From: Alphaproteobacteria bacterium
Lineage (GTDB): Bacteria; Pseudomonadota; Alphaproteobacteria; UBA9219
Reading direction: 5' to 3'
DNA: 64,000 bases
Assembly (NCBI GenBank): GCA_034002905.1
Contig: JAVEZQ010000008.1
Location: 10,206-74,205, forward strand
A model generated the notes under the pieces. That model ran no database searches. It had not been told where the DNA came from and was given only the letters and a program-made list of their open reading frames with translations. A program made the translations under genes and the position numbers. Shown here one piece after another: positions 11,127-39,684 of this stretch. Within the stretch, counting starts at the first letter, position 1, and each line of letters begins with the position of its first letter.

Positions 11127-11831
11127 ATGTTCATGAAAAGTAAAGGTCCCATTCACGAAGCTGGCTGGCCGTTTATCGCGATTGCTGCGCTTATAACGTT
11201 GTTCCTTGGCCTGATCTTTGGCCAGCTCGGCTTTATTTTTGGTTTGATCGTTACCGGGTGGGTTATCTATTTCTTTCGCGATCCAGCGCGTGTCACGCCT
11301 TCTAAGGATGGTCTGGTTGTTAGTCCTGCTGACGGTCGTATTCAAGCCATTGCTGATGTGGTGCCGGACAAGGATCTGGGCCTAGGGGATGAGCCGCGCA
11401 CGCGTGTCAGCATTTTTTTGAATGTGTTTGACGTGCATGTGAACCGTTCTCCTGTTTCGGGAACGGTGGCTTATGTGCATTACAGGCCTGGTAAGTTTGT
11501 CAACGCGTCGCTCGATAAAGCAAGCGTGGATAACGAGCGTAACGCGCTGGCCATCACCATGAAGGGTGAACACAAATATGCAGGTCAAAAGATTGGCGTG
11601 GTTCAGATTGCAGGGCTTATTGCGCGACGTATTCTCTGCCATGTCAAACCTGATGATGAATTGCTGGCGGGGCAACGCTTTGGCCTGATCCGCTTTGGGA
11701 GTCGTACAGATATCTATCTTCCGGCTGGTGTGAAGCCGCTTGTTTGCATCGGGCAGCGCGCCGTGGGGGGCGAGACGGTAATTGCCGATATGACAAGTGA
11801 CGAAATGCAGCGAGTAGGGGAGGTGCGCTGA
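11127..11831 (+). CDS. psd: Phosphatidylserine decarboxylase proenzyme (short alphaproteobacterial type)
   Basis: It has N-terminal TM helices and the LIRFGSRTD self-cleavage site (the G-S-T/R motif) near the C-terminus. Confidence 0.9.
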
Positions 11832-11832
11832 G

Positions 11833-12630
11833 ATGATTTCCATGCGACCCTTGAGAAAAGACGGCCGCCGCGCACCACGGGATTTACCCCTTACGCGCCT
11901 CTTGCCGAATATGCTCACCATGATGTCCTTCTTCGGGGGGCTGACAGCGGTGCGCTTTGCGATGCAGGAGCGGTGGGAAGCCGCCGCCCTTGCCATTGTG
12001 ATTGCCAGTATCTTTGACATTCTTGATGGACGTGTGGCCCGTATGCTCGGCGCGACCAGTAAGTTCGGGGCGGAGCTAGACTCTCTAGCCGATTTGACAA
12101 GTTTTGGTGTGGCGCCTGCGCTGGTTCTCTATTTATGGAATATGTCAGGTGCTGGCGGCAGTTTTGGCTGGGGTGCCGCGCTTGTTTTTGCCGCGTGTTC
12201 TGCTCTGCGTCTGGCGCGGTTTAATACGATGCTCGACGACGAAGACGCGCCGAAATGGACAAAAGGCTACTTTGTCGGTGTTCCCGCCCCTGCGGGTGCG
12301 GGGCTTGCGCTTTTGCCACTTTTCATCGTTCTGAGTTTTGGTGAAGAGTATCGCTTGATGCCACAACTTATGTCCGTTTGGCTGATTTTCGTAGGCGGGA
12401 TGATGGTTAGCCGCGTACCGACCTTGGCGATGAAAGGACGTCGCATTTCACCGCTTGCTGTGGCTCCGATTATGGTGGGCGTGTGCTTGCTCGTGGCCGG
12501 ATTATTTACGCAGACATGGTTGACGCTTTCGGTTTTGGGCAGCACTTACTTCCTGACGCTTCCCTATGGTGTCTGGAGCTATCGTCGTCGTGTGAAAAAG
12601 GAAAAAGATAGTGAAGGACAAGACGTATGA
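11833..12630 (+). CDS. pssA: CDP-diacylglycerol--serine O-phosphatidyltransferase
   Basis: It carries the CDP-alcohol phosphatidyltransferase motif DILDGRVAR...G...AELDSLADLTSFG. It starts 1 nt after the psd stop. Confidence 0.9.
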   Translation: MISMRPLRKDGRRAPRDLPLTRLLPNMLTMMSFFGGLTAVRFAMQERWEAAALAIVIASIFDILDGRVARMLGATSKFGAELDSLADLTSFGVAPALVLYLWNMSGAGGSFGWGAALVFAACSALRLARFNTMLDDEDAPKWTKGYFVGVPAPAGAGLALLPLFIVLSFGEEYRLMPQLMSVWLIFVGGMMVSRVPTLAMKGRRISPLAVAPIMVGVCLLVAGLFTQTWLTLSVLGSTYFLTLPYGVWSYRRRVKKEKDSEGQDV

Positions 12631-24635: not shown

Positions 24636-25172
24636 ATGGCGATACTTGAAGTGCTGACCGTGCCGAACCCGATCTTGCGGGAAGTGGCCAAGCCCGTTGA
24701 GAAAGTCGATGCGCAGATTGCGCAGCTGATGCGAGATATGGTCGAGACGATGTATGCTGACGATGGGATTGGCCTTGCTGCCAACCAGATTGGCGTTCTT
24801 GAGCGTGTGATCGTTGTCGATCTGTCCAAGAGTCGCGACGGCAGCGAGGCGCTGATGATGGCGAACCCCGAGATCATTGAGGAAGGTGAAGGCACTTTTA
24901 CTTATAGCGAAGGGTGTCTGTCTGTAAGACCCTGCGCTACGGAGTCAACGGCTGATCTTTATGCCAATGTCACACGCCCCAAGAGGGTGAAGGTCAAATA
25001 TCTCGACATTGATGGCAAGGAACAGATTGTCGAAGCCGAAGATCTATTTAGTTCGTGCCTTCAACATGAAATTGACCATTTGGACGGCGTTTTGTTTGTT
25101 GACCATCTTTCATCGCTCAAGCGCGGCATGATCATGCGCAAGATTGAAAAGCTCCGGCGTCAGGCGGAGTAG
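24636..25172 (+). CDS. def: Peptide deformylase
   Basis: It has the GIGLAANQIG, EGCLSV and HEIDHLDG motifs. Confidence 0.95.
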   Translation: MAILEVLTVPNPILREVAKPVEKVDAQIAQLMRDMVETMYADDGIGLAANQIGVLERVIVVDLSKSRDGSEALMMANPEIIEEGEGTFTYSEGCLSVRPCATESTADLYANVTRPKRVKVKYLDIDGKEQIVEAEDLFSSCLQHEIDHLDGVLFVDHLSSLKRGMIMRKIEKLRRQAE

Positions 25173-25198: not shown

Positions 25199-26467
25199 TT
25201 ATCCTTCATGCGCCCAGCGCATCACAACTTGGGCCGCTTTGACGCCTGAGCGCAAGGCGCCCTCGATGGTCGAAGGCAGGGATGTCGCTGTCCAATCGCC
25301 CGCAAGCGCAAGATTCTTCCAACCGATATAGGCCGTTGGCCGCATCTTATCCTGTTCGGGAGTGGCAGCAAAAGTTGCACGCTTTTCTCGAATAATGCGA
25401 CAGGGTGGGATTTTCCCAGGGTCAAGATCAAACAGGCGGGCGAGATCGTCCCAGATGGCAATGGCCCATTTTTCTTGATCCTGCTCTTCATAACGGTCAG
25501 CCGCGCTGACGGTAACGGAAACAACACCGGGTTTGACAAACACCCACTCGGCGAGCCCCCCGATCAAGCCAGTAAATCCAGCCAAGTTCTGGGGCGCCTC
25601 CACACGGAAATGCGCATTGGCGATGGCGCGGAAGGATGTGGGGGTCAGCAGGTTAGGAATAATCTCTTGGGCGACCCAAGCGGGGACGGCCAGAATGACC
25701 CAGTCCTTTGGACCGATGGTGATGATGTTTTGATGAAACCGCAGGGCCATAACTTGGCCTTCGCTGGTAACATCGATGCCCTGAAGCCTTTGGCTAAACT
25801 TGATCTCGGTACCATGCTCGCGCAAGGTGCCGATGCAAGGGGTGACAAAGGTTTCCGACAAACCGACCTTGGGAATAATGGGTTGGCAAGCTTTCCCCCC
25901 CGCAGCAAAACTTTGGGCGAGCAGATTGGCGAGAAGCCTGGCCGAGGCGTTCTCGACCTCGGTGTTTAAAGAGGCGATGGCCATCGGCTCCCATAGCCTT
26001 TTATAGATCACCGAACGTGTATCAAGACAGTTAGCGACCGTATCTTTCTCATCGGCGAAAAAGAGGCGTGAGGCCGAAAGATAATCTTTGGCTGTCGTGC
26101 CTGGTACGCGCCGTTTGGGGTCAAAGATCCAGCGCGGGAAGAGGCCGTTGTTCATCCGGAGAATCCAGCGCTCGCCAGTCTGCAGATCCATAAAAGGGAA
26201 GATAGGCTCTTTATGACGGATAACTGTGTCTTGCGCCCCCGATAGCTCCAGATAATCATGGACGGCGACATTGCCTGACAGCACGATGTGGTTGCCATTG
26301 TCGATGCGGCAGTCGAGGCCTTTGTCGAAATAGGAACGACAGCGTCCGCCCGCATAAGGCGCCGCTTCATAGACGGTGACTTTCTCTCCCATAAGGGTGA
26401 GCTGAAGCGCGGCAGAAAGTCCCGCCAAACCTGCGCCAATAATGTGGATTTGTCGTGATTCGATCAT
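25199..26467 (-). CDS. hpnE: Hydroxysqualene dehydroxylase HpnE (FAD-dependent amine-oxidase fold)
   Basis: It has the FAD-binding IHIIGAGLAGLSAA and sits downstream of hpnC/hpnD. The ATG overlaps the hpnD stop as ATGA. Confidence 0.8.
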   Translation of the reverse strand: MIESRQIHIIGAGLAGLSAALQLTLMGEKVTVYEAAPYAGGRCRSYFDKGLDCRIDNGNHIVLSGNVAVHDYLELSGAQDTVIRHKEPIFPFMDLQTGERWILRMNNGLFPRWIFDPKRRVPGTTAKDYLSASRLFFADEKDTVANCLDTRSVIYKRLWEPMAIASLNTEVENASARLLANLLAQSFAAGGKACQPIIPKVGLSETFVTPCIGTLREHGTEIKFSQRLQGIDVTSEGQVMALRFHQNIITIGPKDWVILAVPAWVAQEIIPNLLTPTSFRAIANAHFRVEAPQNLAGFTGLIGGLAEWVFVKPGVVSVTVSAADRYEEQDQEKWAIAIWDDLARLFDLDPGKIPPCRIIREKRATFAATPEQDKMRPTAYIGWKNLALAGDWTATSLPSTIEGALRSGVKAAQVVMRWAHEG

Positions 26468-27327
26468 AGGCGGAAGCTTAGCAAACCCCGAGCCATTAAC
26501 CAAAGCTTTTGCCACAGGGGCAAGGAAACGCGGTAGGAAAGGTCCTTCCAGTTTCGTTTCATAAGCTTTTGCCAGATGGCATAATAATAATTGCGCATAA
26601 TACGTGCTGGTCTCATGGCCCTTTTATTGCAGGACAAAATATACCGATCTGTTTCAATAAAATGATTTCGTGCCGTTTGAGCCAGATCACGACAAACAGC
26701 CGGAAGATTGGGGTGTTTCAAAACATCCTCAATCGACTGTTTTTTGATCCCGTGTTTGTTGAGCAATTCAAGAGGTAGATAGAGGCGACCGCGAGCTGAA
26801 TCCTCGCCAAGGTCCCTTAATATATTGGTAAGCTGTAACGCACGTCCCAAATGATAGGCAACTTGCATCGCTGCGGGCGAGTCATCGCCAAATATTCTTA
26901 CCGAAACGCGGCCAACGGCGCTGGCGACATGATCGCAATAGGTGTCGAGCACGTCCATATTAGGAGCTACAATGGGATTGTGTGCATCCATTTCCATCCC
27001 GGCAATAATCGCTTGAAAATCCGCTTCAACAAGCTTGTAATCTTTGATCGGGGGCAGCAGGGCGGCGCAAATACTGTCTTCTGCCTCGCATCTTTGAAAA
27101 AGGCCTTCAATCTTCCGGTGCCAAAGAGCCAAGCCTTCGTCGCGCATCTGCGCGTTTGGCGAGTCATCAGCGATATCATCCACCTCTCGACAAAAGGCAT
27201 AAAAGGCATACATGGCATTCCGGCGCGCTTTGGGAAGAACCTGCATCCCGGCTGCAAACGAGCTGCGAGAGGACCTGACACGAAAAAGGACATCTCGCAT
27301 TGCTTGTTCATAGGAAAGTTGAGCCAT
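26464..27327 (-). CDS. hpnD: Presqualene diphosphate synthase HpnD (squalene/phytoene synthase family)
   Basis: It has an Asp-rich motif YAFCREVDDIADD and a second DxxxD region. Confidence 0.85.
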   Translation of the reverse strand: MAQLSYEQAMRDVLFRVRSSRSSFAAGMQVLPKARRNAMYAFYAFCREVDDIADDSPNAQMRDEGLALWHRKIEGLFQRCEAEDSICAALLPPIKDYKLVEADFQAIIAGMEMDAHNPIVAPNMDVLDTYCDHVASAVGRVSVRIFGDDSPAAMQVAYHLGRALQLTNILRDLGEDSARGRLYLPLELLNKHGIKKQSIEDVLKHPNLPAVCRDLAQTARNHFIETDRYILSCNKRAMRPARIMRNYYYAIWQKLMKRNWKDLSYRVSLPLWQKLWLMARGLLSFRL

Positions 27328-27407: not shown

Positions 27408-28235
27408 TCAAAAGAACCCGCGTAAAACCCCGTCTATAAGTGCCATAAGCTTCTGTCCCTTAGAGAGTTTAACCGGTTCGGCTAGCGGATCACGCTTCGT
27501 CAGTTCGCGCAGGAGTTCGTCAGCCACATTGTTAATCACAGCCGTATCGATACGCAGCATGCGGTTCTTGACTTGGGGCGGGAAGGTGTGCGCGAGGTCC
27601 ATCATAGGGCCCATCTTGTCGATCATATCGTTGAAAACAGAACGCAGGGAGGGACTAGAGGTTTTTGCCTTGACATCGTCAATGGTCGCACCGCGTGCCG
27701 CTAGCATATCTAGCGGGATATAAAGGCGGTTGAGTTCGCACAAATCTGTAGCGCAGTCTTGTATGTGGTTGGTGATTTGAAGGACACTGCATAGCGCATC
27801 ATTCGCGGGCCAAGACGCATGATCCTCCCCGTGGAGATCAAGCAAGTAACGCCCTACAGGTGCAGCGGAATAGCGGCAATAATCTAAAAGCTCTTCCCAG
27901 TTTTTATAACGTAGTTTGGTTACGTCGCGCTTGAAGGCAACGAGGAGCTCCCGCGCATGATCGGAGCTGACGCCTGTTTCTTTGAGGCTATTGCGTAGCG
28001 GGATCACGCTCTCGATGCTGTTGTCCGACTCATTCATCAGGGCTGCATCAAATTGGTCGAGACGCAGGATCTTTTCTTCAGGCGACAAAGTTTCGCTGTC
28101 GCTGATATCGTCGGCAGCGCGGGCAAAGCTGTAATAAGCCGCGACGTGCGGCCTGTGCGTTTTATCAATGAGTTTGGTGACAGGAAAGTTCTCTGTCGTT
28201 TCATTCTTGCCGCTTGGCATTTCAATGGGGGGCAT
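27408..28235 (-). CDS. hpnC: Hydroxysqualene synthase HpnC (squalene/phytoene synthase family)
   Basis: It has YSFARAADDISD and is a paralogue of the adjacent hpnD. I prefer the ATG at 28235; the ORF-track GTG at 28295 would overlap hpnB by 50 nt. Confidence 0.8.
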   Translation of the reverse strand: MPPIEMPSGKNETTENFPVTKLIDKTHRPHVAAYYSFARAADDISDSETLSPEEKILRLDQFDAALMNESDNSIESVIPLRNSLKETGVSSDHARELLVAFKRDVTKLRYKNWEELLDYCRYSAAPVGRYLLDLHGEDHASWPANDALCSVLQITNHIQDCATDLCELNRLYIPLDMLAARGATIDDVKAKTSSPSLRSVFNDMIDKMGPMMDLAHTFPPQVKNRMLRIDTAVINNVADELLRELTKRDPLAEPVKLSKGQKLMALIDGVLRGFF

Positions 28236-28245: not shown

Positions 28246-29376
28246 TCACTTCTTGGAGGTCTGGTAACGTCCCTTCCAATTACCCCCTTTGCCACGGTAA
28301 TAGCGCAGGGCGGAGTCGATCGTCGCGATCATATAAAAAAGGGCAGCTAAGGGCAAGCTGGCCGCCCATGCCAGAGAACGCCCATAAAAACGGATAGTTG
28401 GCCGGTACAGGATGAAGATTTCGTACAGGACGAAAAGGCCGAGCATCAGGGGAGATGTCTTGAAACTCAAGAGCGCCACGAGCGGAACAAGGAAGAGGAG
28501 CGACAACCCCAACAGGCAGCCGAGTAAATAGAGCGGTGAATAGTGCAGCTGAGTGTAAGCGGCCCGCGCAATCATGTTATGAATCTCATCCATTGTATGA
28601 TAGGGGCGGATACTGCGCACATCGTGCGTAAGGCCGAGGTAAATCCGGTTACTGCATTTCTTGATGAGCGCAGCAAGCGAGCAATCATCAATCAAGGCGT
28701 TTTTGATTTTCTCAAGGCCGCCTGCCTCGTCAAGAACGACGCGACGCACGAGCATCACCCCGCCCGCTGCCGCAGCAACGCGTGATCGTGGATCATTGGC
28801 GCGGCGGAAGGGGTAGAGCATCGCAAAGAAAAAGACAAAGGCGGGGATCATCAGCTTTTCGGCCCAGCTTTCGCAATAAAGCTTGACCATAAGAGATGTG
28901 AGATCAAGTTGGTTGAGTTCAGCTTTTGCGACGAGGTGTTCAAGGCTCTTGGGATGATGGACGATATCGGCATCGGTAAACAAGATAAAGGGTGATGAGC
29001 TTTGCCGGACTCCCGCTTGCATCGCGGCGACTTTCCCTGACCACTCTTTGGGAAGGTCGGGAGCGTCAACGATGGTTAAGCGTGCAGATTGCCCCAATTT
29101 TATTGCCGTTTCTTCAGCGACTTTGCGCGTGGTATCCGTGCTGTGGTCGTTGACAAGAATAACACGGAAATAGCCGGGATAGTTTTGTGTCAGAAGGGAA
29201 GACAAGGTTGCCCCGATGACATCCTCTTCATTGCGGGCCGGAACAACGATATCAATATTGGGCCAAGGTCCAGACCACGAGTCTTCTTCCATAACGAGCG
29301 GACGCCAAAAGTCCCCATGGTAAAATCCGAGATAGAGCCACCCGAGCAAAGAAAGGAACGCTAGAACGGTCAACAT
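28246..29376 (-). CDS. hpnB: Hopanoid-associated family 2 glycosyltransferase HpnB
   Basis: It has a GT2 DxD (VNDHSTD, TDAD), N-terminal and C-terminal TM segments, and sits between hpnA and hpnC. Confidence 0.75.
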   Translation of the reverse strand: MLTVLAFLSLLGWLYLGFYHGDFWRPLVMEEDSWSGPWPNIDIVVPARNEEDVIGATLSSLLTQNYPGYFRVILVNDHSTDTTRKVAEETAIKLGQSARLTIVDAPDLPKEWSGKVAAMQAGVRQSSSPFILFTDADIVHHPKSLEHLVAKAELNQLDLTSLMVKLYCESWAEKLMIPAFVFFFAMLYPFRRANDPRSRVAAAAGGVMLVRRVVLDEAGGLEKIKNALIDDCSLAALIKKCSNRIYLGLTHDVRSIRPYHTMDEIHNMIARAAYTQLHYSPLYLLGCLLGLSLLFLVPLVALLSFKTSPLMLGLFVLYEIFILYRPTIRFYGRSLAWAASLPLAALFYMIATIDSALRYYRGKGGNWKGRYQTSKK

Positions 29377-29385
29377 AGGACAACC

Positions 29386-30393
29386 TTAAAAATACCCGTA
29401 TTCGCCAAACCACTGGACCGCATCGCGAAGGGCGTCTGTCGCCTCTCGCGGTGCATAACCGAGCGCCGTTTTGGCTTTGTCCGAAGAAAAGAACATTTTC
29501 TTTTTGGACATGCGAAGCCCGTCGACGGTCACGAACGGTTCTTTCTTGGTTAGGCGCGCTATAAACTCGGCTATATGTGCGATGGGAATAAGAGGGCCAT
29601 GCGAAAGCTTGAAGAGCGGAGGGTTGCGCCCTGTTAGTATGGCTATGATCTTGAGGATTTCAAGCAGCTCCATATTCTCGCCGCCCAGAATATAGCGTTC
29701 GCCGATTTTCCCTTTTTCAAGGGCGAGCCAGTGTCCCATCGCCACGTCATCGACATGAACAATGTTCAGGCCTGTTTCAACATAGGCGGGCATACGTCCT
29801 GCTGCTGCCTCGACGATAATGCGTCCGGTTGGCGTGGGTTTTAGATCGCGGGGGCCGATGGGTGTCGAAGGATTGACAATCACGGCGGGAAGGCCCTGTG
29901 TCGCCGCCATGGTCCTTACAACGTCCTCGGCCAGATATTTGGAGCGTTTGTAAACCCCGATCATATTGTCGATGGACACTGGCGTCGTTTCCGTGCCTGG
30001 CTTTCCATCGGGCGGGATACCAAGCGTCGCGACAGAGCTGGTATAGACAATTTTTTTGATGCCTGCTTTGACAGCCCCATTCATCAGGGCCTTGGTTCCT
30101 TCGACATTGATCTTGTTCATCGCTTGTTCGTCGGGAACCCAAATTCTGTAATCCGCCGCAACATGGAACAAATAATCGCATCCCTCAAGTTTCCCTATAT
30201 AGCTTTCGGGATCGGCGAGGTCGCCTTCGACAAGTTCGAAGTTTGTTTTGAGGCCGAGCAGATTTCGCCGGTCATTATTCTTTCGCGAAAGGAGGCGAAG
30301 TCGGTGCCCCTTGCTTTCCAATAGAGAGGCAACGGCTGCGCCAACAAACCCTGTTGCGCCTGTAACAAAGGTGAGGGGGGCGTTCTCGTTCAT
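29386..30393 (-). CDS. hpnA: Hopanoid-associated NAD-dependent sugar epimerase/dehydratase HpnA
   Basis: It has a Rossmann TGATGFVGAAV and YxxxK (YKRSK), and is the first gene of hpnABCDE. Confidence 0.8.
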   Translation of the reverse strand: MNENAPLTFVTGATGFVGAAVASLLESKGHRLRLLSRKNNDRRNLLGLKTNFELVEGDLADPESYIGKLEGCDYLFHVAADYRIWVPDEQAMNKINVEGTKALMNGAVKAGIKKIVYTSSVATLGIPPDGKPGTETTPVSIDNMIGVYKRSKYLAEDVVRTMAATQGLPAVIVNPSTPIGPRDLKPTPTGRIIVEAAAGRMPAYVETGLNIVHVDDVAMGHWLALEKGKIGERYILGGENMELLEILKIIAILTGRNPPLFKLSHGPLIPIAHIAEFIARLTKKEPFVTVDGLRMSKKKMFFSSDKAKTALGYAPREATDALRDAVQWFGEYGYF

Positions 30394-30947
30394 TAATTTA
30401 GGTTAAACGTGAAGGTTATACCCGAACAATTTGCTGGGATCGAAGAAACGCCTATTGCGCTGAGGTCATTAAAAGCTACGCCATCGACGATAGCCTCAAC
30501 AAGTCCTGGATCACGGCCCACACCAGTCGTTTTGGTCAGTATGGTTCCGCAGACGTCGGCTGGAAGGTTCGGGTCCAAAACGATCTGAAACTGTGTTGAA
30601 GTCGATATCAAAACGCGCACGGGCGTTCCGAAATCCGTTCTGGGTATCACCGAGGTAGGATCCTCAAACATTTCTCTTGGAAAAGATCCTGCGTTCACAA
30701 GCATTTGTGTAATATCGGTTCCGGGAGCGGAAGTAAAAGCGCTTCGACCACTGTAAAGTTTACGGATGTTTTGTGCGATGACAGCTATGTGTTGGATAGA
30801 GTTTTGCGTCGAAGCCTCTCGTCGGACAACGCTTGTTGCCGCCCAGATGCCGCTGAGAACGAGGCCTATAATGCCAAGGACAATGGCGGCTTCGATCAGC
30901 GTGAAGGCTTGACGTCGCAAAGGCATTGAAAGGGCAGGGGCTCTCAT
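30393..30947 (-). CDS. Type IV pilin-like / T2SS pseudopilin-like protein (prepilin-type N-terminal methylation domain)
   Basis: RRQAFTLIEAAIVLGIIGLVLSGIW is a class III (prepilin peptidase) signal with E at +5. It is about 180 aa. The stop overlaps the hpnA ATG as TAATG. Confidence 0.7.
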   Translation of the reverse strand: MRAPALSMPLRRQAFTLIEAAIVLGIIGLVLSGIWAATSVVRREASTQNSIQHIAVIAQNIRKLYSGRSAFTSAPGTDITQMLVNAGSFPREMFEDPTSVIPRTDFGTPVRVLISTSTQFQIVLDPNLPADVCGTILTKTTGVGRDPGLVEAIVDGVAFNDLSAIGVSSIPANCSGITFTFNLN

Positions 30948-31136
30948 GGGGTAGACTCTCCGTTTCTCTGTAGAGATGCTCGGACTTTATATCTTTTCTT
31001 TCCTTAAGACAAGTTAACGAATTATCAACCCAACTGACCGTTAATCAGGCTAGGGTTCTTCTTTGTCTTTTTACAGGGGCAAAGCGGAGCGAGGCGGTTA
31101 ACGCGTTGCCGCCATTGTTCTTATGGGGTGAGGTGT

Positions 31137-32870
31137 ATGCGATCAGGGGTTCTCCTATTTCTGTTGCCGCTTGTCTTGATGGCCGCTTGTTCGGATATCG
31201 ATGTCTCTAAGGCACGTTCGACTACGGGGCGCGCGCCTTCGGTTGCTGAGGTTCCTGATGCTGATGAAACTGTGCGTGGGCCAGATGATCCACCCATCGT
31301 CACACTGGACATTGGATCGCGGTTGAAAGAGCGTCCTTTAACGCGGTCAGAAACTTTGCCAGGGGGAATAATAGTCCCCAATACAAATTTGAAAGCTGTT
31401 CCGGTTACGGCTGCGTTACAGGCCGTGTTAGATGGAACCGATGTGTCCTTGTCATGGGATTCGAGCAATTTCGAAAGCCGACTGGTTACGGTTACAAATT
31501 TGAGTGGTTCGCTGCCCGTTGTTGTGCGGAAGATATGCACGTCGGCCAAAGTTTTCTGCAGTTACCGCAATGGCCTTTTAGAGCTTAAGGAGCGGGAAAC
31601 CTTTGTGATAGATTTGCCCTCCATCCCAACAAAGTCAGGTGCGGCGGGCGCAACGAACACTATGGCGGATACGATAAGCCTCTTGTCTGGAGATCAGGCC
31701 AAGATAGATAATCAGGGCGGGAACCTTCTTTATACGACGGATGTTGAAGGATATGAACATGTCCATGAATATCTGGATCAATTACGTCATGGACGCCCTC
31801 TCATTGTAATGCAGCTTTATATTTGGGAAGTGACGCTCAACAACGATCATGCAACGGGCATTAACTGGAAGAGCTTTAGTCTGGACGAGTTTGGTGGGCC
31901 CATGGAGAAATTGGCCATCAGTGGGTTGACCGGCTTTACGAGCCTGACAAGTCCGGGGGTCAGTCTTGGGGCGAAGCTTACGGGACGTGTTGATGCCGAT
32001 ACCGTTCTTCAATTTCTTGCAACGCAGGGGCAGGTGCAGACGGTTAGTAATCCACAGCTTACCTTTGTTTCCGGATCAAACGCGGAGTTTCGGGTTGGCG
32101 GTAAGCAACGTTATATCGCGCAGGTCGGCCAGCTTACCTCAAGCGTTTCGGGCACGTCGAGTTCGGGTGTCGGAACCAACACAGTTTCTACCGAAAGTAT
32201 TGATACCGGTCTAACGATCACAACAAGCGGCCTTTATGAGGGGGGAGTCATTTCCGCACTTCTTGAATTGACGACACAGGATGTTGTGAGCCTCAATCCA
32301 ACCACAATGGAAAGTGGTGTTACCGTTGACCTTCCCGAAACTTCGGAGCGCAAGGTCTCGACATCCATTCGTGTTCGGCCCGGAGACAATCTTGTTCTTG
32401 CGGGTCTTGTAACATCACGTGATGTGAATGACCGTGATGGGATTCCTCTTCCTTTTGGAGCTAGAGTTCCAACCTTTTCACGTGATCAACTCAAGAATAC
32501 AGAGCTTGTGGTTTTGGTTAAACCATCTGTTGTTGTTTTTGCCGAGAAAAAGATCGACCCTGAAGCGGAGAAACTCAAAGAACGCATGAAAGATGCGCTG
32601 AGCGAGCAAACGGCCGTTGTTATCGATAAGGACGGGACAAAGATGATGCAGATTCCTGCTGATCAGGGATTGCAGACACCGACTGTTCCTGCTCCCTATC
32701 GCGCTGAGTTGATGGTGCCATATGACGGTCGTGCGCAGCCGGTTCAGCCGATGCCTTTGACTCCTTCAGAAAACGGAACAGCAATTGATGGACGCATGAT
32801 GCAAGGAGGGTTTGGTCAGGCTTTTCGTGAATTGAGCGAGCCGGATGATGGTCAAGTGGTGAAACAGTGA
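31137..32870 (+). CDS. Secretin (GspD/PilQ family) with an N-terminal lipoprotein signal
   Basis: It has an LVLMAAC lipobox, an N0-like region, and a C-terminal secretin domain (NPQLTFVSGSNAEFRVG ... IRVRPGDNLVLAGLVTSRDVNDRDGIPLPFGARVPTFSRDQLKNTELVVLVKPSVV). A strong Shine-Dalgarno precedes the ATG at 31137; the ORF track starts at a GTG at 31128. Confidence 0.85.
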   Translation: MRSGVLLFLLPLVLMAACSDIDVSKARSTTGRAPSVAEVPDADETVRGPDDPPIVTLDIGSRLKERPLTRSETLPGGIIVPNTNLKAVPVTAALQAVLDGTDVSLSWDSSNFESRLVTVTNLSGSLPVVVRKICTSAKVFCSYRNGLLELKERETFVIDLPSIPTKSGAAGATNTMADTISLLSGDQAKIDNQGGNLLYTTDVEGYEHVHEYLDQLRHGRPLIVMQLYIWEVTLNNDHATGINWKSFSLDEFGGPMEKLAISGLTGFTSLTSPGVSLGAKLTGRVDADTVLQFLATQGQVQTVSNPQLTFVSGSNAEFRVGGKQRYIAQVGQLTSSVSGTSSSGVGTNTVSTESIDTGLTITTSGLYEGGVISALLELTTQDVVSLNPTTMESGVTVDLPETSERKVSTSIRVRPGDNLVLAGLVTSRDVNDRDGIPLPFGARVPTFSRDQLKNTELVVLVKPSVVVFAEKKIDPEAEKLKERMKDALSEQTAVVIDKDGTKMMQIPADQGLQTPTVPAPYRAELMVPYDGRAQPVQPMPLTPSENGTAIDGRMMQGGFGQAFRELSEPDDGQVVKQ

Positions 32871-34207
32871 TGAGAGATTTTATTCTGCGAGGTGGTTTTG
32901 TTGTTATCTGTCTGCTCTTTCTGCAGCAGCCAGTTTGGGCTGCACGTGACGCGGCGTTCGTCTCTCCATCGGCGGGTTCTGCAAGCGGAGCTTCTCCTGA
33001 CAGTCTTAAGGTTGAGCCCAAGAACGAGGTCGATGTTGGCGAAACGCCTGTCAATCTTGGCCGTCGTGCGACGTTCTTCTTTATAAACCAAACAGGGCAA
33101 GTCATTAATATCGAGAAAATTTCTGCAAATGGCGATAGCAATGTTAAAGCTGAAATCGTCGGAGATGATTGTTCGCGTACGAAAGCAATTTCCATTGCCA
33201 GTCGTTGTTCGGTGACAGTTGAGGCAACGCCAACCGGTTCAGGTTCATGGTCGGCCGAATTGCTTGTGACACACGATGCCCCCGACCGTATTGCCCGCGT
33301 GCGCATCATTGGAAAGACGGGAGGCAATCAAAAGGAAAGGCGTGACTTGGGGCTTTCTCTGAGCACAAAAGATATCAAGCCTATTGATTTCGGAGAAGTT
33401 GAAGTCGGGACAGATAAAGCTGTGCGCACGGCGCTTATGGTCAATGACAGTAACGAGAACATCAGTATTTTGTCGGTTGAAGTGATCGCGCCTGAAAACG
33501 GGCTAGAGCGGTTGGATCAAGGGTGCTTGCCGGATATGGATCTTAAAGTGGGTGAGTCTTGCCCCGTGACATTGATGTGGCAGCCCGAGGCTCGCGGCAT
33601 GATCTCGACTGACCTGATCATTCGTCATACGGGACAGCTTGGCTTTGCGGTTATTCCCATTCGCGGTAAGGCAAAGGAACCCGTGGCCGATCCTTCACTG
33701 GCAGGAACGGCATCGGGGGGGGCAGGAAAAGGAGCTCCTGTTAAGATGCCTGATCTGAATGCCCCGCCGACACTGGATGATATCCAGCGTGAGATGCAAG
33801 GGAATCTTAGCCCGCTCTCTATTGCTGGCGAGCAAGCAGAAATGGTCCAGCGACGAAAAACGAAACCAAGCGAGGACGCTAGCTTAGGATCCTATCAACT
33901 GATCGGAACTGTTGGTAACCGCGCTATCATCATAAAGCCGGATGGATCGACCGAAATTGTTTCGTTGGGGCAGGATATCCCTGAAGAAGGTGGAACTGTC
34001 AAGGTTCTCAACATAGCACCAAATGAAGCAACGATTATGCGAAAGGGTAAGAAACAGACACTCCGTTTACAACCTTCTAATTTAATGACCAACAGGGCTC
34101 TTCAGCAGCGGTCCGGGGATGCGCGTGAAAAGGATAGCCTTCAAACCAACCGAAAGCCTGCACATATGCAGGAAAAAAGTTCAGTTGATTTACCGGTGAA
34201 GAAGTAA
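32870..34207 (+). CDS. GspC/PilP-like periplasmic secretin-associated protein with two N-terminal Cys-pair beta-sandwich repeats
   Basis: It has an N-terminal hydrophobic signal. Two tandem repeats of about 110 aa each carry a C-x10-C pair (DDCSRTKAISIASRCSV and QGCLPDMDLKVGESCPV). The C-terminus YQLIGTVGNRAIIIKPDGSTEIVSLGQDIPEEGGTVKVLNIAPNEATIMRKGKKQTLRL matches the PilP/GspC HR-domain pattern. The start overlaps the secretin stop. Confidence 0.5.
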   Translation: MRDFILRGGFVVICLLFLQQPVWAARDAAFVSPSAGSASGASPDSLKVEPKNEVDVGETPVNLGRRATFFFINQTGQVINIEKISANGDSNVKAEIVGDDCSRTKAISIASRCSVTVEATPTGSGSWSAELLVTHDAPDRIARVRIIGKTGGNQKERRDLGLSLSTKDIKPIDFGEVEVGTDKAVRTALMVNDSNENISILSVEVIAPENGLERLDQGCLPDMDLKVGESCPVTLMWQPEARGMISTDLIIRHTGQLGFAVIPIRGKAKEPVADPSLAGTASGGAGKGAPVKMPDLNAPPTLDDIQREMQGNLSPLSIAGEQAEMVQRRKTKPSEDASLGSYQLIGTVGNRAIIIKPDGSTEIVSLGQDIPEEGGTVKVLNIAPNEATIMRKGKKQTLRLQPSNLMTNRALQQRSGDAREKDSLQTNRKPAHMQEKSSVDLPVKK

Positions 34208-35982
34208 TGGACGATTTTTTATCAAGTGATTCCGCTGAAGGGGATGCAGGGCAAGTTATTGCCATTCACGATGCGCATCTTGATAATGTCAAACCGCGTC
34301 ATTATGAGCTCGCGCTGGCCGAGCAGGCAATGCGTCGTACTACGGGGCGTTATCTTTCGATAGAGGAAATTCTCAGGCGCAATGGTTTCGTCGTAGAAGG
34401 CAGTAAGAGCATGCATGGCCGAAATGGCGTGCGTGAGGACCTTACGATGCAGTCCTTGCGTCTGTATGTTTCTGTGGCAACGCAGGCAGCCATGGGGCTT
34501 TGCTTGCTCGAACTCAAAGATGGTGTATTACGGATTGCTGTTGGAGATCGTGTTGACGATGCCGATCTTTTGCGCGTTTCGGCAAGCCTTGCACGTGCCC
34601 ACCATCAGGTCGACAAGATCGAGGTCGAGCCGTGGGACAAGACAGACTTTGCTCGGTTGATGCGCGAGCAGAGCGAAGTCGCGGGTGAAAGGCTTTTACG
34701 CGTTTTTTCGATGCTCAGCAAAGATCCTGATGATGCAATGCTGATTGAACAAGCGTTGCATGACGTTTTAGCTGAAGCCCTGCAAACGCGTACTTCGGAT
34801 ATTCATTTTTCACTGCAAGAAGATGACGCGCGTTGCTGGATACGGTACCGTATTGATGGCGACTTGGTTTATAAACATTTGATACCACATCGCGTTATGG
34901 CCCCCTTAGTCACGCGCATTAAAACTGACTCCAAAATGGACGCCGCCGATCGTCAGCATCCGCAGGACGGGCGTCTTGGGTTTGAATGGCAGGGGCGTGT
35001 GATCGACGTTCGTGTTGCAACCTTGCCTGTCGCTCCTTCTGGCGAAAAACTCACCCTCCGATTGCTTGATCGTGAAAATCTGCGCAGTTTTGACGAGTTG
35101 TTTATGCATGCGCCTGTTGTGGCGGAGAAGCTACGGCGGGCTGTTCATGGCCATACGAAAGATGGCGGCTTGATTGTTGTGAGCGGTCCAACCGGTTCTG
35201 GTAAGTCAACGACACTTTATGGCGTCATTCAGGAAATTGATCGTTCGGCAAGAGCGGTTTATTCGGTTGAAGCACCTGTTGAATATGATATGCCTCTGGT
35301 TGACCAGACTTCGGTTACCGATAATTCGGCGAACACGATTGCCGATATTATTCGTGCCCTGATGCGCCATGATCCAGATGTGATTATCGTCGGCGAAATG
35401 CGTGATGGCGACACAGTTGAGGCCGCATTGCGTGCGACTGAATCTGGACACTTGGTTATTACCACAGTTCACGCTGTTGACGCTATTCATACACTTGATC
35501 GTATGGACGGGTTCCTTAGCTCTGACTATCGTACAAGTGGTCTTTACATTTTGGGTCATGCCCTTGTGGCTTCTCTTTCGCAACGTCTGGTTAAAACCGT
35601 ATGTCCGGCTTGTCACCAGACCGAAGAAGCCCTTCGTGTATTTGGCTCGGCTGAGCGATGCAATGATATAGGCGTTTTGCCTGATGATAAGGTTGCCTTG
35701 GCCAACGGTCAGGGGTGTGACCTGTGTAATCGAACAGGATTTTTAGGGCGAACGTTGATTCTAGAAGCGCTTTTCCCTCCCGAGGATCAGGCCAGCCGGC
35801 GTGCAATTACCGAGATGCTTGTCTCGAACGTTTCATCTTCGATCGTCGATGTGCCGGGCACTTTTTTCTTGCCGCGTCGCGAGTCCATACGTGATTTGAT
35901 TCGTCGCAAAGCTGTTGATGCCAATATGGGCGCCTCTTTGATGGTAGAAGAGGCAACGGTTCGTCACAACCGTATGAGGTAG
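34207..35982 (+). CDS. gspE: Type II secretion / type IV pilus assembly ATPase (GspE/PilB family) with a C-terminal tetracysteine motif
   Basis: It has an N1-like domain, ASDIHF and QDGRLGF..RVATLP motifs, a GPTGSGKST Walker A, an Asp box, a VIIVGEMRD Walker B, a GHLVITTVHA His box and CPAC-x27-CDLC. Confidence 0.9.
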   Translation: MDDFLSSDSAEGDAGQVIAIHDAHLDNVKPRHYELALAEQAMRRTTGRYLSIEEILRRNGFVVEGSKSMHGRNGVREDLTMQSLRLYVSVATQAAMGLCLLELKDGVLRIAVGDRVDDADLLRVSASLARAHHQVDKIEVEPWDKTDFARLMREQSEVAGERLLRVFSMLSKDPDDAMLIEQALHDVLAEALQTRTSDIHFSLQEDDARCWIRYRIDGDLVYKHLIPHRVMAPLVTRIKTDSKMDAADRQHPQDGRLGFEWQGRVIDVRVATLPVAPSGEKLTLRLLDRENLRSFDELFMHAPVVAEKLRRAVHGHTKDGGLIVVSGPTGSGKSTTLYGVIQEIDRSARAVYSVEAPVEYDMPLVDQTSVTDNSANTIADIIRALMRHDPDVIIVGEMRDGDTVEAALRATESGHLVITTVHAVDAIHTLDRMDGFLSSDYRTSGLYILGHALVASLSQRLVKTVCPACHQTEEALRVFGSAERCNDIGVLPDDKVALANGQGCDLCNRTGFLGRTLILEALFPPEDQASRRAITEMLVSNVSSSIVDVPGTFFLPRRESIRDLIRRKAVDANMGASLMVEEATVRHNRMR

Positions 35983-35988: not shown

Positions 35989-37212
35989 ATGAAGCTATTT
36001 CATGCAAAATATGTCCAGCAAACAACAGGTGGCGGTTCCTTGGTTCAGGAGGAAGACTTTTATTTGCCTGACGAACGTGCAGTCCGCCATTTGCTGAGGA
36101 GCAAAGGGTATTGGCCCGTGGTCATTCAGGAACAAAAACCTCCCTTGTTTGAATGGATGGATGTTCGTTCGCGTGAATGGCAGATGCAACTTCTCAGAGC
36201 TATCCGTTTCCAGTCCGCGACCGCATCGGCTGGAACGGCGTTGATGAACATTATCGAGGGAGAAGATGACCCAAGGCGTCGTTTGGCCTTTCTTCCAACG
36301 CGAACAGTTTTGAAAGGTGGAGGGTCTTTTTCCGAGGCATTGCGCGAACTCAAGCTAATGGACGCGCCAACTATGGCCATCATCACCGCAGGAGAACGCG
36401 CTGGGGACCTCAAAGGTGTTATTCAGCATGCTATTGAGCATGTCGAGCAAAAAGGAAGCCAGTACAAGGCCGTTATTGCAGCATTGAGCTGGCTTTCTTT
36501 TGATATCATCTCGGTGGTGGGTACCATTTGGGGGAACCAATTTGGGTTTATTCCTTATTTGAAAGCGCAGGGGACAAAAAGCACAGAGCCTGGGGCTGCC
36601 GAAAAATTCGAAAATGCCGTTCAGATTGTCAGTGCAATCAATGGGACAATGCTGTTTGTCTCTTCGGTTATTATTCTGGCGGTTGTCTTTTTTGGCATAT
36701 CTTATTGGCGGAATAGACACAAACAGGACCACTTAACATCTCGGCTCATGATGAATATTCCGATGCTTTCAAGCTATTTTCAAAACATGAACATGAAGGA
36801 CACTTGCAAGCTGATGTCTCGACTTCTTCATGGTAAAGTGAATCTTTCGGATTCTTTAAAAATTATTATTGATAGCTCTGTCGAGCCGTCGACACGTTTT
36901 TATTGGTTGACTTGTCAGGCTAAAATCTTGGGCGGTATCGAGCCTGCGCGCGCTTTAGCTCAGTGGCCGTTGACAAAGGCTGAAAGAGATCAGATTGTCA
37001 CGATTCAAATGGTCGACCAACTTAGTGAGGTGTACGCGGCAATCGCAGAAGAACGTAATTTAATGGCCAAGACAGACCAAAGAAAAATCATCAAATTTGG
37101 CATGTTTATGCTTTTTGCTTTGTCTGGCATTACCGTTCTGACAACGATATACTTGCTCATGCTCCAGAATCAGAGTTTCCTCAATTCTATCAATGAAATG
37201 CGTGGTGGCTAA
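35989..37212 (+). CDS. gspF: Type II secretion system F-family inner-membrane platform protein (GspF/PilC-like)
   Basis: It is a 407-aa polytopic protein with the T2SSF signature GGGSFSEAL ... ITAGERAGDL and a second repeat. Confidence 0.8.
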   Translation: MKLFHAKYVQQTTGGGSLVQEEDFYLPDERAVRHLLRSKGYWPVVIQEQKPPLFEWMDVRSREWQMQLLRAIRFQSATASAGTALMNIIEGEDDPRRRLAFLPTRTVLKGGGSFSEALRELKLMDAPTMAIITAGERAGDLKGVIQHAIEHVEQKGSQYKAVIAALSWLSFDIISVVGTIWGNQFGFIPYLKAQGTKSTEPGAAEKFENAVQIVSAINGTMLFVSSVIILAVVFFGISYWRNRHKQDHLTSRLMMNIPMLSSYFQNMNMKDTCKLMSRLLHGKVNLSDSLKIIIDSSVEPSTRFYWLTCQAKILGGIEPARALAQWPLTKAERDQIVTIQMVDQLSEVYAAIAEERNLMAKTDQRKIIKFGMFMLFALSGITVLTTIYLLMLQNQSFLNSINEMRGG

Positions 37213-37213
37213 T

Positions 37214-38302
37214 ATGCTCAAAGCGCTGGTGGACGCCGTCAAGGCCTATTGGAACAGCCTCGGAACCAAGGTTGACCCTCTTGCTGCAGAATTGGGGTTG
37301 CTTAGTGTCGAGAGACCTCAACTGGACAGAAACAAGAATTCTGTTGCAATGATGCAGTCACTTGTCGGAGGCATGGTTGGGGTTGCCGATTACTATTTCC
37401 CAGCTGATATTCTGGGAGGGTGTTGTCCCCGTATTCAAGGTGAAGAACAAAACATCGTTTGGAATGCAGCCGCCGAGGCTTTGGATACAGAGCGCGTTCA
37501 CTTGGTATGGCAGGCCAAGAAGGACAAAATATATTATTTGGCGGTGTCATCTGAAAGCATCCGTTCGCATCCCAACACCTGGTGTCCGTTTTGTTCCCTT
37601 TTGCCCGGAATGGATGATGCGGCCATCCCGCCAACTATATACACTCATTATAGCGAAGAAGTGGCCACAATGATGGCTATCACATCAGATTCGCTTACGA
37701 TTCATCGTGGTACTTCGTCGGTTATCCGGGCGAAAGCGGAGCGGCTTGCACGAGAAAATAATAATGCGCCCCTTATTGACATGGTTCCCGACCTGATTCA
37801 ATCGTTGCAGCCGGTTCCATGGTATTCCGTTTCGCTGTTTGAGGATCGTGCGCGGCGAATTTTGTCGACCCTTATGGTCTCCTCTGCGATAATTTTTACA
37901 ACCATAGCCCTTTTTGTTTGGTTTGTTGCAGCGGTCTCTACGTTGAATGCCAAGGTCGATCTCGAAGAAATACGAGAACGCAGCAATGTAAAGACGATCG
38001 AATTGATGAAAAAGGTGCAGGAGCATCGTGCGAGCCCTATGCGAAAGCAAATAGCGAGTTTTGCAGATCTCAATGATGGCCTTCTCGCCCTGAACGGATA
38101 TTTAGAGATGTATCAGATTGTAAAAGGAAGGGTTCTCTGGCGTGCAATTGTTCCAGGTAACGTTACCGCTGAACGCATCAAAGAGCTCGGTGGGCAGACT
38201 CTTGGTAACGCAGATATGGGTGTTATAATCGGAAATTCTCCCGATGCTTTGGGATCGGATCGTTCTGGCGATTCTAAGGGTCGTGGTGGTAGGAGGAGGT
38301 AA
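37214..38302 (+). CDS. GspL-like bitopic protein (cytoplasmic domain, one TM, periplasmic domain)
   Basis: A cytoplasmic part of about 215 aa is followed by a single TM (ILSTLMVSSAIIFTTIALFVWFVAAV) and a periplasmic part of about 130 aa. It sits right after gspE/gspF. The assignment rests on topology, size and synteny only. Confidence 0.4.
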   Translation: MLKALVDAVKAYWNSLGTKVDPLAAELGLLSVERPQLDRNKNSVAMMQSLVGGMVGVADYYFPADILGGCCPRIQGEEQNIVWNAAAEALDTERVHLVWQAKKDKIYYLAVSSESIRSHPNTWCPFCSLLPGMDDAAIPPTIYTHYSEEVATMMAITSDSLTIHRGTSSVIRAKAERLARENNNAPLIDMVPDLIQSLQPVPWYSVSLFEDRARRILSTLMVSSAIIFTTIALFVWFVAAVSTLNAKVDLEEIRERSNVKTIELMKKVQEHRASPMRKQIASFADLNDGLLALNGYLEMYQIVKGRVLWRAIVPGNVTAERIKELGGQTLGNADMGVIIGNSPDALGSDRSGDSKGRGGRRR

Positions 38303-38304
38303 AA

Positions 38305-38826
38305 ATGTCACTGGATTTTTCTTCCTTACCCAAGATTCTCAGCCCGGCAATTCTAACAAGGGCCGTTCGTTCTTTTGACAAGACAGTAACCCTTTTTGTA
38401 TCTGTTGGTTGGGGGGCGGTCATTGTTGTTTGGATTCTTGCGATTTATACTATTCATTTGTCGGTAACAGCTCGTTCTCAGTTAGCTGAAGCTTCTGCAA
38501 AGGAACCAAGCCTGCCCATCATAGAGAAGACATCTGTGCCTGCCCGACAAATCGAAAAAGTTATGGAGAGGCTTAAGAAAAAGTTTCCTGACGTTACCGT
38601 CAGCGCCGCGCGTGATTCGTCAGTCAATATTATCGGGACTGAGGGATCGCGGTTTAAAAGCTGGATGTACGCCTTGAGTTATATTGAGATTATATCTCCT
38701 GAATATTACTGGGAAATCAAGGAGATGTGCGTTGGCGCCCATTGTGGGGCTAATTCGTTGATGAAGGTTGTCTTGACTCCTCAGAAAATCATTTTCAAGG
38801 CACCGGAAGTTTCCTCTGACCCCTAA
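38305..38826 (+). CDS. GspM/PilO-like small bitopic protein
   Basis: It is 173 aa with a short cytoplasmic N-terminus, a TM (VTLFVSVGWGAVIVVWILAIYTI) and a periplasmic domain. The assignment rests on topology and synteny only. Confidence 0.35.
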   Translation: MSLDFSSLPKILSPAILTRAVRSFDKTVTLFVSVGWGAVIVVWILAIYTIHLSVTARSQLAEASAKEPSLPIIEKTSVPARQIEKVMERLKKKFPDVTVSAARDSSVNIIGTEGSRFKSWMYALSYIEIISPEYYWEIKEMCVGAHCGANSLMKVVLTPQKIIFKAPEVSSDP

Positions 38827-39024: not shown

Positions 39025-39684
39025 ATGAGGCGATTGGACGAGAGTCTGTATGAGAACAAGTTGCCAAGCGATGCTGGTATTGCCATTGGACCAATTCTGT
39101 TCATCATCGCGGTTTTGGGTATTCTAGCGGCAGCTATCGCGGCGGGAAGTGGTTCCTTTACGACCAATACTCACGGTGAAAATACCAGAACAAGAGCAAC
39201 GGCCATGATTGATATTGGCCAGAACTTGAAAATTGGTATGGACCGTGTTGTCGGTCTAGGCACTGACATTGTGGATGTCGTTATCGATCCGACGGTGACG
39301 TCCGGCGACGATGCGATCTTTTCGCCGATAGGTGGTGGTATTTCGGCTCCTTCGGTAACAATGGCGGCGGATGCGTCATCTGATACGTGGCACTATCCGA
39401 CGATTGCTGTCCCAGGAATAGGTACGGCATCAGGAAGTCGTGTTGCTGTTCTCCGTGTAACCGATGTTGTTTGCGATGAAATTAACTCCAAGGTCAATGC
39501 CATGGCTGCTGGCACGGCCAGTGGTGCTGCAGTGGATATTGGTGATTTTACGTCAACAGCTGTGAATGACGGTGCGGCATGGCCCAGTGATTTTGACGGA
39601 AAGCCAGTTGGATGTGTCTATAACAGCAATTCCACCTCGATCGCTGCGGGTTTCTATTTCTATCAGGTTTTGGCGGTCGAATAA
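39025..39684 (+). CDS. Pilin-like structural protein with a non-canonical leader (candidate major (pseudo)pilin of the cluster)
   Basis: A charged N-region (MRRLDESLYENKLPSDAG) is followed by an uninterrupted 23-aa hydrophobic segment (IAIGPILFIIAVLGILAAAIAAG) with no Glu at +5. The body is Gly/Ala/Ser/Thr-rich with two Cys about 50 aa apart near the C-terminus. It is followed by the strongest terminator in the window. Confidence 0.45.
   Translation: MRRLDESLYENKLPSDAGIAIGPILFIIAVLGILAAAIAAGSGSFTTNTHGENTRTRATAMIDIGQNLKIGMDRVVGLGTDIVDVVIDPTVTSGDDAIFSPIGGGISAPSVTMAADASSDTWHYPTIAVPGIGTASGSRVAVLRVTDVVCDEINSKVNAMAAGTASGAAVDIGDFTSTAVNDGAAWPSDFDGKPVGCVYNSNSTSIAAGFYFYQVLAVE

Follow-up and report, generated by a model that had tools for sequence, protein, structure and literature searches.

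Why does a gene for a pilus subunit stand at the head of an operon for squalene and hopanoid-type lipids? The question is raised by a 64,000-nucleotide stretch of contig JAVEZQ010000008.1 from an alphaproteobacterium, which as a whole is called the window below. In this stretch an open reading frame (ORF) for a 184-aa prepilin (30393..30947, minus strand) runs directly into hpnA (29386..30393, minus strand), which is followed by hpnB, hpnC, hpnD, and hpnE. On the other side of the prepilin gene an operon for a filament machine starts with a secretin gene and is read in the opposite direction. The initial annotation, made from the sequence of the window, described the ORF as a pseudopilin gene translationally coupled to the hopanoid operon.

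The explanation of the whole locus that we consider probable is the following. The divergent operon encodes a filament machine, and the window ORF would supply its type IVb-fold pilin. The machine operon would already have stood head-to-head with an hpnA-led squalene/hopanoid operon in the common ancestor of a whole clade of uncultured alphaproteobacteria, the two operons flanking a short control region that bears a conserved motif. In one sub-clade the pilin gene would have been inserted a single time between the control region and hpnA and so have become the first cistron. Transcription would then run from one control region into the machine operon on one side and into pilin-hpnA-(B)-C-D-E on the other, and ribosomes terminating on the UAA of the pilin message would restart on the overlapping AUG of hpnA. 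In this way filament, machine, and squalene/hopanoid lipid synthesis would be regulated together.

The junction between the pilin gene and hpnA

The TAA stop codon of the pilin ORF and the ATG start codon of hpnA have one base in common, and the overlap TAATG described by the initial annotation can be read directly in the window (30393..30397, minus strand; ...cta aat TAATG aac gag). The same junction is seen in four independent assemblies of the same species (loci L001-L004; related loci are referred to by such numbers) and is therefore not an assembly artefact. An identical TAATG overlap is present in locus L005. The spacers along pilin-hpnA-hpnB-hpnC-hpnD-hpnE, which were taken from the gene calls of the 99%-identical metagenome-assembled genome (MAG) GCA_009929575.1, are −1, +9, +10, +80, and −4 nt in this order. 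Direct reading of the window sequence found an ATGA overlap that joins hpnD and hpnE, and the earlier description of hpnB to hpnE as closely spaced downstream genes holds. Stop/start overlaps also occur in six other co-directional gene pairs of the window. An overlap of 1 or 4 nt is per se unremarkable; what exceeds chance is that pilin gene and hpnA are kept together across lineages.

A sequence scan of the region between the pilin gene and hpnA found no terminator-like and no sigma70-like site. The sole hairpin near the 3′ end of the pilin gene is weak and internal to the ORF, and the other terminator-like matches are weak and lie within ORFs as well. Attenuator or terminator structures were also sought by RNA folding, and none was found: no common base pairs were predicted for seven orthologous junctions, and the window junction folded no better than shuffled sequences (z = 0.71). 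An Rfam search of positions 29000-31500 returned just a chance miRNA-like match (E 0.56). Past the end of the gene series, a weak hairpin with a T-run is located 30 nt beyond the hpnE stop codon (25152-25169).

The translation signals of the two genes differ. The pilin gene has the Shine-Dalgarno (SD) sequence GGAGAG 8 nt ahead of its ATG, with a duplex energy of −6.9 kcal/mol. For hpnA the duplex energy is +0.7 kcal/mol, the second weakest among 46 window genes, which means that it has essentially no SD. Since hpnA lacks an SD of its own and its start overlaps the pilin stop by one base, termination-reinitiation is the simplest route to its translation, and we infer that this route is used. 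The pilin gene and hpnA to hpnE thus have the features of a single operon, with a common strand, short or negative spacers, and neither a terminator nor a promoter between pilin and hpnA. These features support one transcription and translation unit for pilin and hpnA, and a single transcript from the pilin gene through hpnE would be expected. The co-transcription and coupled translation proposed in the initial annotation are in this way supported by the sequence rather than demonstrated.

Conservation and history of the paired operons

Conservation of the arrangement was examined in two sets of loci. An HpnA-based scan with one genome per species gave 80 loci, and a secretin operon was found upstream of hpnA only in those closest to the window (HpnA 61-72% identical). 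The MAGs carrying these closest loci are labeled Micavibrio, Rhodospirillaceae, Alphaproteobacteria, or 'Bdellovibrionales', an order under which NCBI places Micavibrio. Among the eleven closest genomes the machine adjoins hpnA in 7 and does not in 3, while 1 is not assessable. A scan of metagenomes with an alignment of secretin N-termini added 25 loci, all of which share <95% nucleotide identity with one another and with the genome loci; hpnA lies within 2.5 kb of the secretin gene in 15 of the 19 that could be assessed. In the pooled set 29 loci have enough upstream sequence to be judged, and the machine operon is back to back with hpnA in 25 of them.

What lies between the two operons varies. 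Eight loci of the pooled set have the pilin gene leading into hpnA (the window, L007, L008, L009, L087, L096, L099, and L100). L005 has the same order and stands outside the count of 29 because its secretin gene is off the contig; it was found, like L087 and L096, by look-ups of pilin homologs. The absence of pilin-hpnA adjacency from all related genomes had been named as a refuting outcome; instead, the adjacency was found in nine lineages, and the refutation fails. The gap between the two genes is −4 to +9 nt in seven of these lineages and 55-56 nt in the other two (L099 and L100). The pilins of these lineages are 33-42% identical to that of the window, except for the 78% identical protein of L005 (gap −1 nt). 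L007, L008, and L009 have pilins of 33-39% identity with gaps of +4, +9, and −4 nt, respectively; the values are 35% and +8 nt for L087 and 42% and +2 nt for L096.

In eight further loci hpnA stands directly head-to-head with the machine operon at a distance of 178-402 nt (L014, L018, L098, L106, L107, L110, L112, and L116). Another co-directional gene fills the slot in nine: a D12 N6-adenine DNA methyltransferase gene in L012 (4711-5952 of that locus), L015, L102, and L119, and an EamA transporter gene, with or without a KamA-like radical-SAM gene, in L105, L108, L109, L111, and L113. The remaining four loci (L101, L103, L115, and L117) have no hpnA within 4 kb or more. Judged from gene order, the deeper conserved unit is the pilus-machine operon head-to-head with hpnA, the pilin gene being one of several occupants of the slot.

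The order of events was traced with a neighbor-joining (NJ) tree of HpnA, in which all machine-adjacent hpnA genes form one group. The pilin-bearing class is monophyletic, with L010, in which the adjacency is lost, nested inside it. Loci of the direct head-to-head class are placed basally (L018) and, in addition, in the sister clade. L098 was left out of the tree as its contig holds just 86 HpnA residues; this fragment is 74% identical to window HpnA, the most similar after those of L005 and L096. The tree suggests, provisionally, that the pilin gene was inserted once between control region and hpnA and that other lineages took other genes into the slot. No pilin gene or pilin remnant was found in L098, despite the exact copy of the motif described below. 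At about 255-500 of its original coordinates L098 carries a long palindrome with perfect ends before hpnA, GTCATTGCGAG...CTCGCAATGAC, which resembles a REP or MITE element.

The secretin operon starts 189 nt from the pilin gene on the opposite strand, in agreement with the divergent orientation described earlier. Alignment of this control region (30948..31136) with its orthologs showed a proximal block that is identical between window and L005 at 78 of 78 nt, while the flanking synonymous sites are saturated (dS 1.1 for pilin and 1.85 for hpnA). The region contains the 19-nt motif GTTGATAATTCGTTAACTT (31011..31029, minus strand), a candidate operator or promoter element. It is preceded at about 10 nt by a conserved ATTAAC and followed by TTAA. 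Exact copies occur in the window, L005, L007, L008, L009, L087, and L098, and most other loci have, ahead of their secretin gene, a copy with 1 to about 5 mismatches (consensus GTTKATAWTTCGTTAAC). The motif is weakest in L018, L114, and L117, and L115 gave no match. L101 and L103, both without hpn genes, also carry it upstream of the secretin gene. It is absent elsewhere in about 1.1 Mb of loci sequence and stands about 50-150 nt before the first gene on the hpn side, whether this is the pilin gene, hpnA, or the methyltransferase gene.

Because the motif is unique, lies upstream of the secretin gene, and is kept in L101 and L103, it points to a control element of the pilus operon, with the hpn-side unit plugged into the same region. 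The motif is thus a candidate element of the machine operon that would be common to the pilin-hpn unit. By-eye comparison with sigma70, sigma28, sigma54, ECF, IHF, and DnaA sites gave no convincing match. Its TTAAC and TTAA-N6-TTAA elements recall what we take to be the CtrA box (TTAA-N7-TTAAC), with a mismatch in spacing, and the likeness serves as a lead only.

The arrangement might also be an inherited accident, in which the two operons were neighbors, the pilin gene landed in a permissive slot, the promoter of hpnA-hpnE lies in or after the pilin gene, and the overlap reflects compaction. This is possible but in our judgment doubtful. It agrees with the placement of all occurrences in a single monophyletic group of the HpnA tree, with the unrelated genes taken up by the slot (methyltransferase, EamA, KamA-like), with the machines of L101, L103, L115, and L117 that are kept without hpn, and with the missing pilin in L010, which nests in the pilin clade, and in L098, which has the exact motif. 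Overlapping stop/start pairs are common in the window, as noted above. Our literature search found no paper linking hopanoid genes with pilins, type IV pili, or secretins, nor Micavibrio with hopanoids, which also fits an accident and bears out the earlier remark that no link of hopanoids to type II secretion systems (T2SS) or type IV pili had been described.

An accident accounts less well for the retention of the pairing in 25 of 29 lineages, since HpnA in the lineages that keep it is only about 61-74% identical to that of the window (92% in L005) and the pilin about 35%. The opposite flank of the hpn operon served as a control: over this same divergence it differs in all four genomes that could be compared, no gene being common to the window, L007, L008, and L087. 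Moreover, seven lineages leave no room for a promoter outside the pilin ORF, hpnA has no SD, and all genes inserted in the slot are co-directional with hpnA.

Several observations weigh against the shared control and tight coupling that we favor. The motif stays with the pilus operon in the hpn-less loci L101 and L103 and may therefore serve the machine operon only. A consensus scan recognized no sigma70-like promoter in the control region. The same scan found no sigma70 site inside the pilin ORF, although an internal promoter may escape such a scan. The gaps of 55-56 nt in L099 and L100 indicate that tight coupling is not universal. The slot holds a methyltransferase gene, an EamA gene with or without a KamA-like gene, or nothing, which makes it permissive, and the pilin gene in it may not have been selected for a hopanoid-related reason. 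The NJ tree is based on a single protein and carries no support values. Finally, the whole pattern is one inherited arrangement in one clade, and its persistence could be due to phylogenetic inertia.

The pilin, the filament machine, and the hpn genes

The protein encoded by the window ORF begins with MRAPALSMPLRRQAFTLIEAAIVLGIIGLV. It has a prepilin leader of 14 aa, and its cleavage region reads LRRQA/FTLIEAAIVLGIIGLV, where the slash marks the cleavage site. The mature protein would start with Phe1 and has Glu5, which is invariant across 71 family members, and a hydrophobic N-terminal helix. At −1 (residue 14, codon 30906-30908) the window, L005, and L008 carry Ala in place of the usual Gly, which is found in more than 90% of family members, those of L006, L007, and L009 among them. 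The canonical class III signal claimed earlier is therefore better described as near-canonical: Glu5 and the hydrophobic helix are in place, and the −1 residue deviates. To our knowledge, Ala is the one substitution at −1 reported to permit partial prepilin cleavage, and it may affect the efficiency of prepilin processing here.

The label of pseudopilin could not be maintained. The window protein scores above the cut-off of the Pfam models PilS (PF08805; 24 bits, cut-off 22) and N_methyl (23.3 bits, cut-off 21.2), and reaches just 17 bits with the GspH pseudopilin model (cut-off 80). A single-sequence search retrieved only 4 relatives. With a profile built from orthologs 320 homologs were found, nearly all of which carry PF08805 and/or PF05307 (bundlin), and several are named 'type 4 pilus major pilin' by NCBI. 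In the PDB the family profile matches BfpA (1e-12), PilS of S. Typhi (2e-9), and TcpA (3e-8). The AlphaFold (AF2) model of the window pilin has a pLDDT of 92.9, and its only significant Foldseek match in the PDB is 3fhu, S. Typhi PilS (E 6e-6). In keeping with a C-terminal disulfide, all family members have Cys133 and at least 90% have Cys174. The gene products of window and L005 differ with a dN/dS of 0.12 at a dS of about 1.1, which indicates that the gene is expressed and constrained. From family, profile, and modeled fold, the ORF is assigned to the type IVb-fold pilins of the PilS/bundlin family and not to the T2SS pseudopilins.

PHROGs searches gave nothing meaningful for the pilin or for the neighboring proteins without a family. 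More distant members of the pilin family occur in other gene contexts. An epimerase gene beside a distant pilin homolog in L006 was considered as a second pilin-hpnA case and rejected, as its product does not match TIGR03466 and is not HpnA. In L090, which is from the same MAG as L007 (contig JAQUYN010000006.1), positions 8001-12175 hold another cluster, which encodes two pilins of the PilS/bundlin type and a minor pilin with a Peptidase_S74 domain. There are no assembly genes beside this cluster, and the hpn-adjacent machine may therefore assemble several pilins.

The machine operon starts with the gene of a lipoprotein secretin (31137..32870, plus strand; Pfam Secretin 8e-16; lipobox LMAAC). 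Its best NCBIfam match is MshL at 106 bits, which is under the cut-off, and BfpB is its only sequence relative in the PDB. A lipobox before Cys is also present in the related secretins, as expected of the lipoprotein secretin of a type IVb machine. The second gene (32867..34207, plus strand) encodes a 446-aa accessory protein that is particular to this machine type, 38-54% identical across all related clusters. It shows weak Ig-like/ASH and choice-of-anchor-D matches, and a profile search of the PDB gave no sequence relative. Next are the genes of a GspE/PilB-like assembly ATPase (34207..35982, plus strand; Pfam T2SSE 6e-86), which is 72-86% identical among relatives, and a platform protein of the GspF/PilC family (35989..37212, plus strand; Pfam T2SSF 1e-13). 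Two more genes, encoding 369 aa and 173 aa (37193..38826, plus strand), have no Pfam or NCBIfam match and are conserved in the same order in L087.

The machine could in principle be a T2SS that secretes proteins, with the ORF encoding its pseudopilin. Among solved structures the ATPase is related best to GspE/EpsE (211 bits), slightly above PilB (188) and with BfpD at 86, and a GspC-type match of the 446-aa protein is faint (E 0.008) and under the cut-off. Other evidence favors a pilus. Besides the family, profile, and fold matches of the pilin to type IVb major pilins and the low GspH score, the window holds one ORF with a prepilin motif in 64 kb, where a T2SS would have five pseudopilins plus GspC, GspL, and GspM, and the lipoprotein secretin has BfpB as its PDB relative. 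We therefore consider a T2SS very improbable. It should be added that type IVb pili can also secrete proteins, and that function and membership are separate questions.

Not all features of a type IVb machine are found either. The ATPase is not of the BfpD/PilQ type, no PAP_PilO match was obtained among the accessory proteins, which are thus not of the PilO/PilP type, and a scan limited to ORFs of the cluster gave no match to a prepilin peptidase (A24). The distant relatives L092 and L094 have R64-like type IVb clusters of the order PilN-PilO-PilP-PilQ-PilR followed by several pilins; the R64-like ATPase of L092 and that of the window share only 28% identity. We refer to the machine as a type IV filament system of unassigned subtype whose subunit has a predicted type IVb fold.

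Just past the machine operon two tandem paralogs of the DotA/TraY family, each of 890 aa, are encoded at 39969-42641 and 42676-45345 (plus strand), with scores of 310 and 294 bits (cut-off 100). No further gene of a Dot/Icm (type IVB secretion) system was found in the window. In the related MAG locus L089, DotI/IcmL genes are present near a PilS-type pilin gene. The DotA pair beside the machine operon recalls the thin pilus and I-type transfer system of IncI plasmids. Between machine operon and DotA genes there is a 219-aa ORF (39025-39684, plus strand) with one N-terminal hydrophobic segment (GIAIGPILFIIAVLGILAAAIAAG); it lacks Glu5 and a prepilin motif and has no match in Pfam, NCBIfam, or PHROGs.

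On the hpn side, the product of hpnA is a 335-aa SDR-family protein annotated as hopanoid-associated sugar epimerase (TIGR03466, 481 bits, cut-off 368). The GT2 glycosyltransferase HpnB (28246..29376, minus strand; TIGR03469, 489 bits, cut-off 379), the presqualene diphosphate synthase HpnD (26464..27327, minus strand; TIGR03465, 311 bits, cut-off 279), and the hydroxysqualene dehydroxylase HpnE (25199..26467, minus strand; TIGR03467, 387 bits, cut-off 283) are likewise above the curated cut-offs. HpnC (27408..28235, minus strand), which is assigned to the squalene synthase step, is marginally below its cut-off (TIGR03464, 245 bits, cut-off 250; Pfam SQS_PSY 8e-49). The hpnC start is that of the MAG annotation; the ORF itself reaches 28295, and the 245 bits were scored with this long ORF.

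These genes would make squalene (HpnCDE) and carry HpnA and HpnB in addition. A squalene-hopene cyclase gene (shc/hpnF) follows hpnE or is nearby in 28 outgroup loci. A search that covered the window and, in the loci of the clade, the 6 kb next to hpnA found none, and hpnH and hpnN are also missing from the window. The term hopanoid operon is thus only partly shown to apply: the squalene enzymes and the HpnA and HpnB families are present, and the cyclase is missing from this neighborhood. According to one published study of Alphaproteobacteria, hpnA and hpnB are confined to genomes that possess hpnH as well, and this co-occurrence argues indirectly for hopanoid production.

The hopanoid label could also be misleading here, with HpnA and HpnB modifying the pilin, for instance through glycosylation. 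Published work has not established what HpnA and HpnB do, a question open since hpn clusters were first described; the SDR and GT2 families are typical of glycan synthesis, and the start of hpnA overlaps the stop codon of the pilin gene. However, hpnB is missing after hpnA in the pilin-bearing loci L007, L008, L009, and L087, where hpnC follows directly; it is present in the window, L099, and L100. HpnA and HpnB score above the curated thresholds for the hopanoid-associated families. Wherever sequence downstream of hpnA is visible, hpnC, hpnD, and hpnE follow it, also in loci without pilin. The outgroup loci keep the same hpn gene order and continue into the squalene-hopene cyclase gene. Given the four pilin-bearing lineages without hpnB and the constant position of hpnA ahead of hpnC, hpnD, and hpnE, pilin glycosylation was rejected as highly improbable. 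The remaining genes of the window (pyruvate kinase, ATP synthase F0, def, rmuC, dut, coaBC, mreCD, and PBP2) are those of an ordinary chromosome.

Possible significance and relation to known systems

If the two operons are linked as we propose, a shared regulator would act on both of them. Their joint expression might bring a physiological benefit, for instance a stiffer outer membrane when the machine is deployed. We hypothesize more generally that the arrangement could reflect envelope remodelling co-regulated with the machine, an idea already put forward in the initial annotation. A further step would be that the filament machine and the squalene/hopanoid pathway are physically interdependent, with this dependence enforced by one control region and, in one sub-clade, by the coupling of pilin and HpnA. 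Hopanoid-type lipids or the product of HpnA might, for example, be needed in the envelope at the site of the secretin or pilus. Such interdependence is in our view rather unlikely. If true, it would for the first time connect hopanoid-type lipids genetically with a type IV filament and offer a first functional handle on hpnA. With its filament machine, and in part of the clade also the pilin, kept beside hpnA-hpnE around one conserved element, the clade is a natural system for asking whether membrane-ordering lipids support large outer-membrane machines and what the role of HpnA is. If the pairing is mere inertia, the locus still illustrates cleanly how a permissive slot at the head of an operon can take up a pilin, a methyltransferase, or a transporter gene, depending on the lineage.

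The window pilin can be compared to PilS of S. Typhi and of the IncI plasmid R64 thin pilus (PF08805; PDB 1q5f/3fhu). The two have in common the leader, Glu5, the long N-terminal helix, a β-sheet head, and the C-terminal disulfide, with a TM score of 0.65 normalized to the target. Sequence identity is only about 17%, and the window pilin has Ala instead of Gly at −1. In addition, its gene is outside an operon of the pilL-V type and is followed by genes of lipid enzymes. The window ATPase also departs from the R64-like PilQ of the related MAG and is closer to GspE/PilB.

The bfpA gene of the E. coli bundle-forming pilus and the tcpA gene of the V. cholerae toxin-coregulated pilus are type IVb major pilin genes that head long polycistronic operons. 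The window resembles these operons in having a gene for a type IVb-fold pilin as the first cistron, with downstream genes that would likewise be served by the promoter of the pilin gene, and BfpA is the best profile match in the PDB. However, the genes downstream of bfpA and tcpA build the pilus, whereas those downstream of the window pilin are hpnA to hpnE, with the assembly genes on the opposite strand.

The hpn genes belong to the same families and have the same order as the hpnA-hpnB-hpnC-hpnD-hpnE-shc clusters of Alpha- and Betaproteobacteria. In contrast to the 28 outgroup loci, no locus of this clade has the cyclase gene adjoining the cluster. The head-to-head placement of a type IV filament operon and hpnA is peculiar to this clade, and the pilin leader gene is confined to a sub-clade of it. 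The genome paper of Micavibrio aeruginosavorus describes dispersed pil genes and expressed pilins and mentions no squalene or hopanoid genes.

Divergent gene pairs with one common regulatory region are known as divergons, and the classic cases pair a regulator with its target. The locus described here is similar in that two units face away from a short, motif-bearing region and in that the pairing outlives rearrangement of the outer flank. It differs in that a structural operon is paired with a metabolic one. The component parts, a type IVb-fold pilin, a type IV filament machine, and an hpn operon, are all known; as far as can be told, their conserved pairing around a common motif and the fusion of pilin gene and hpnA are new.

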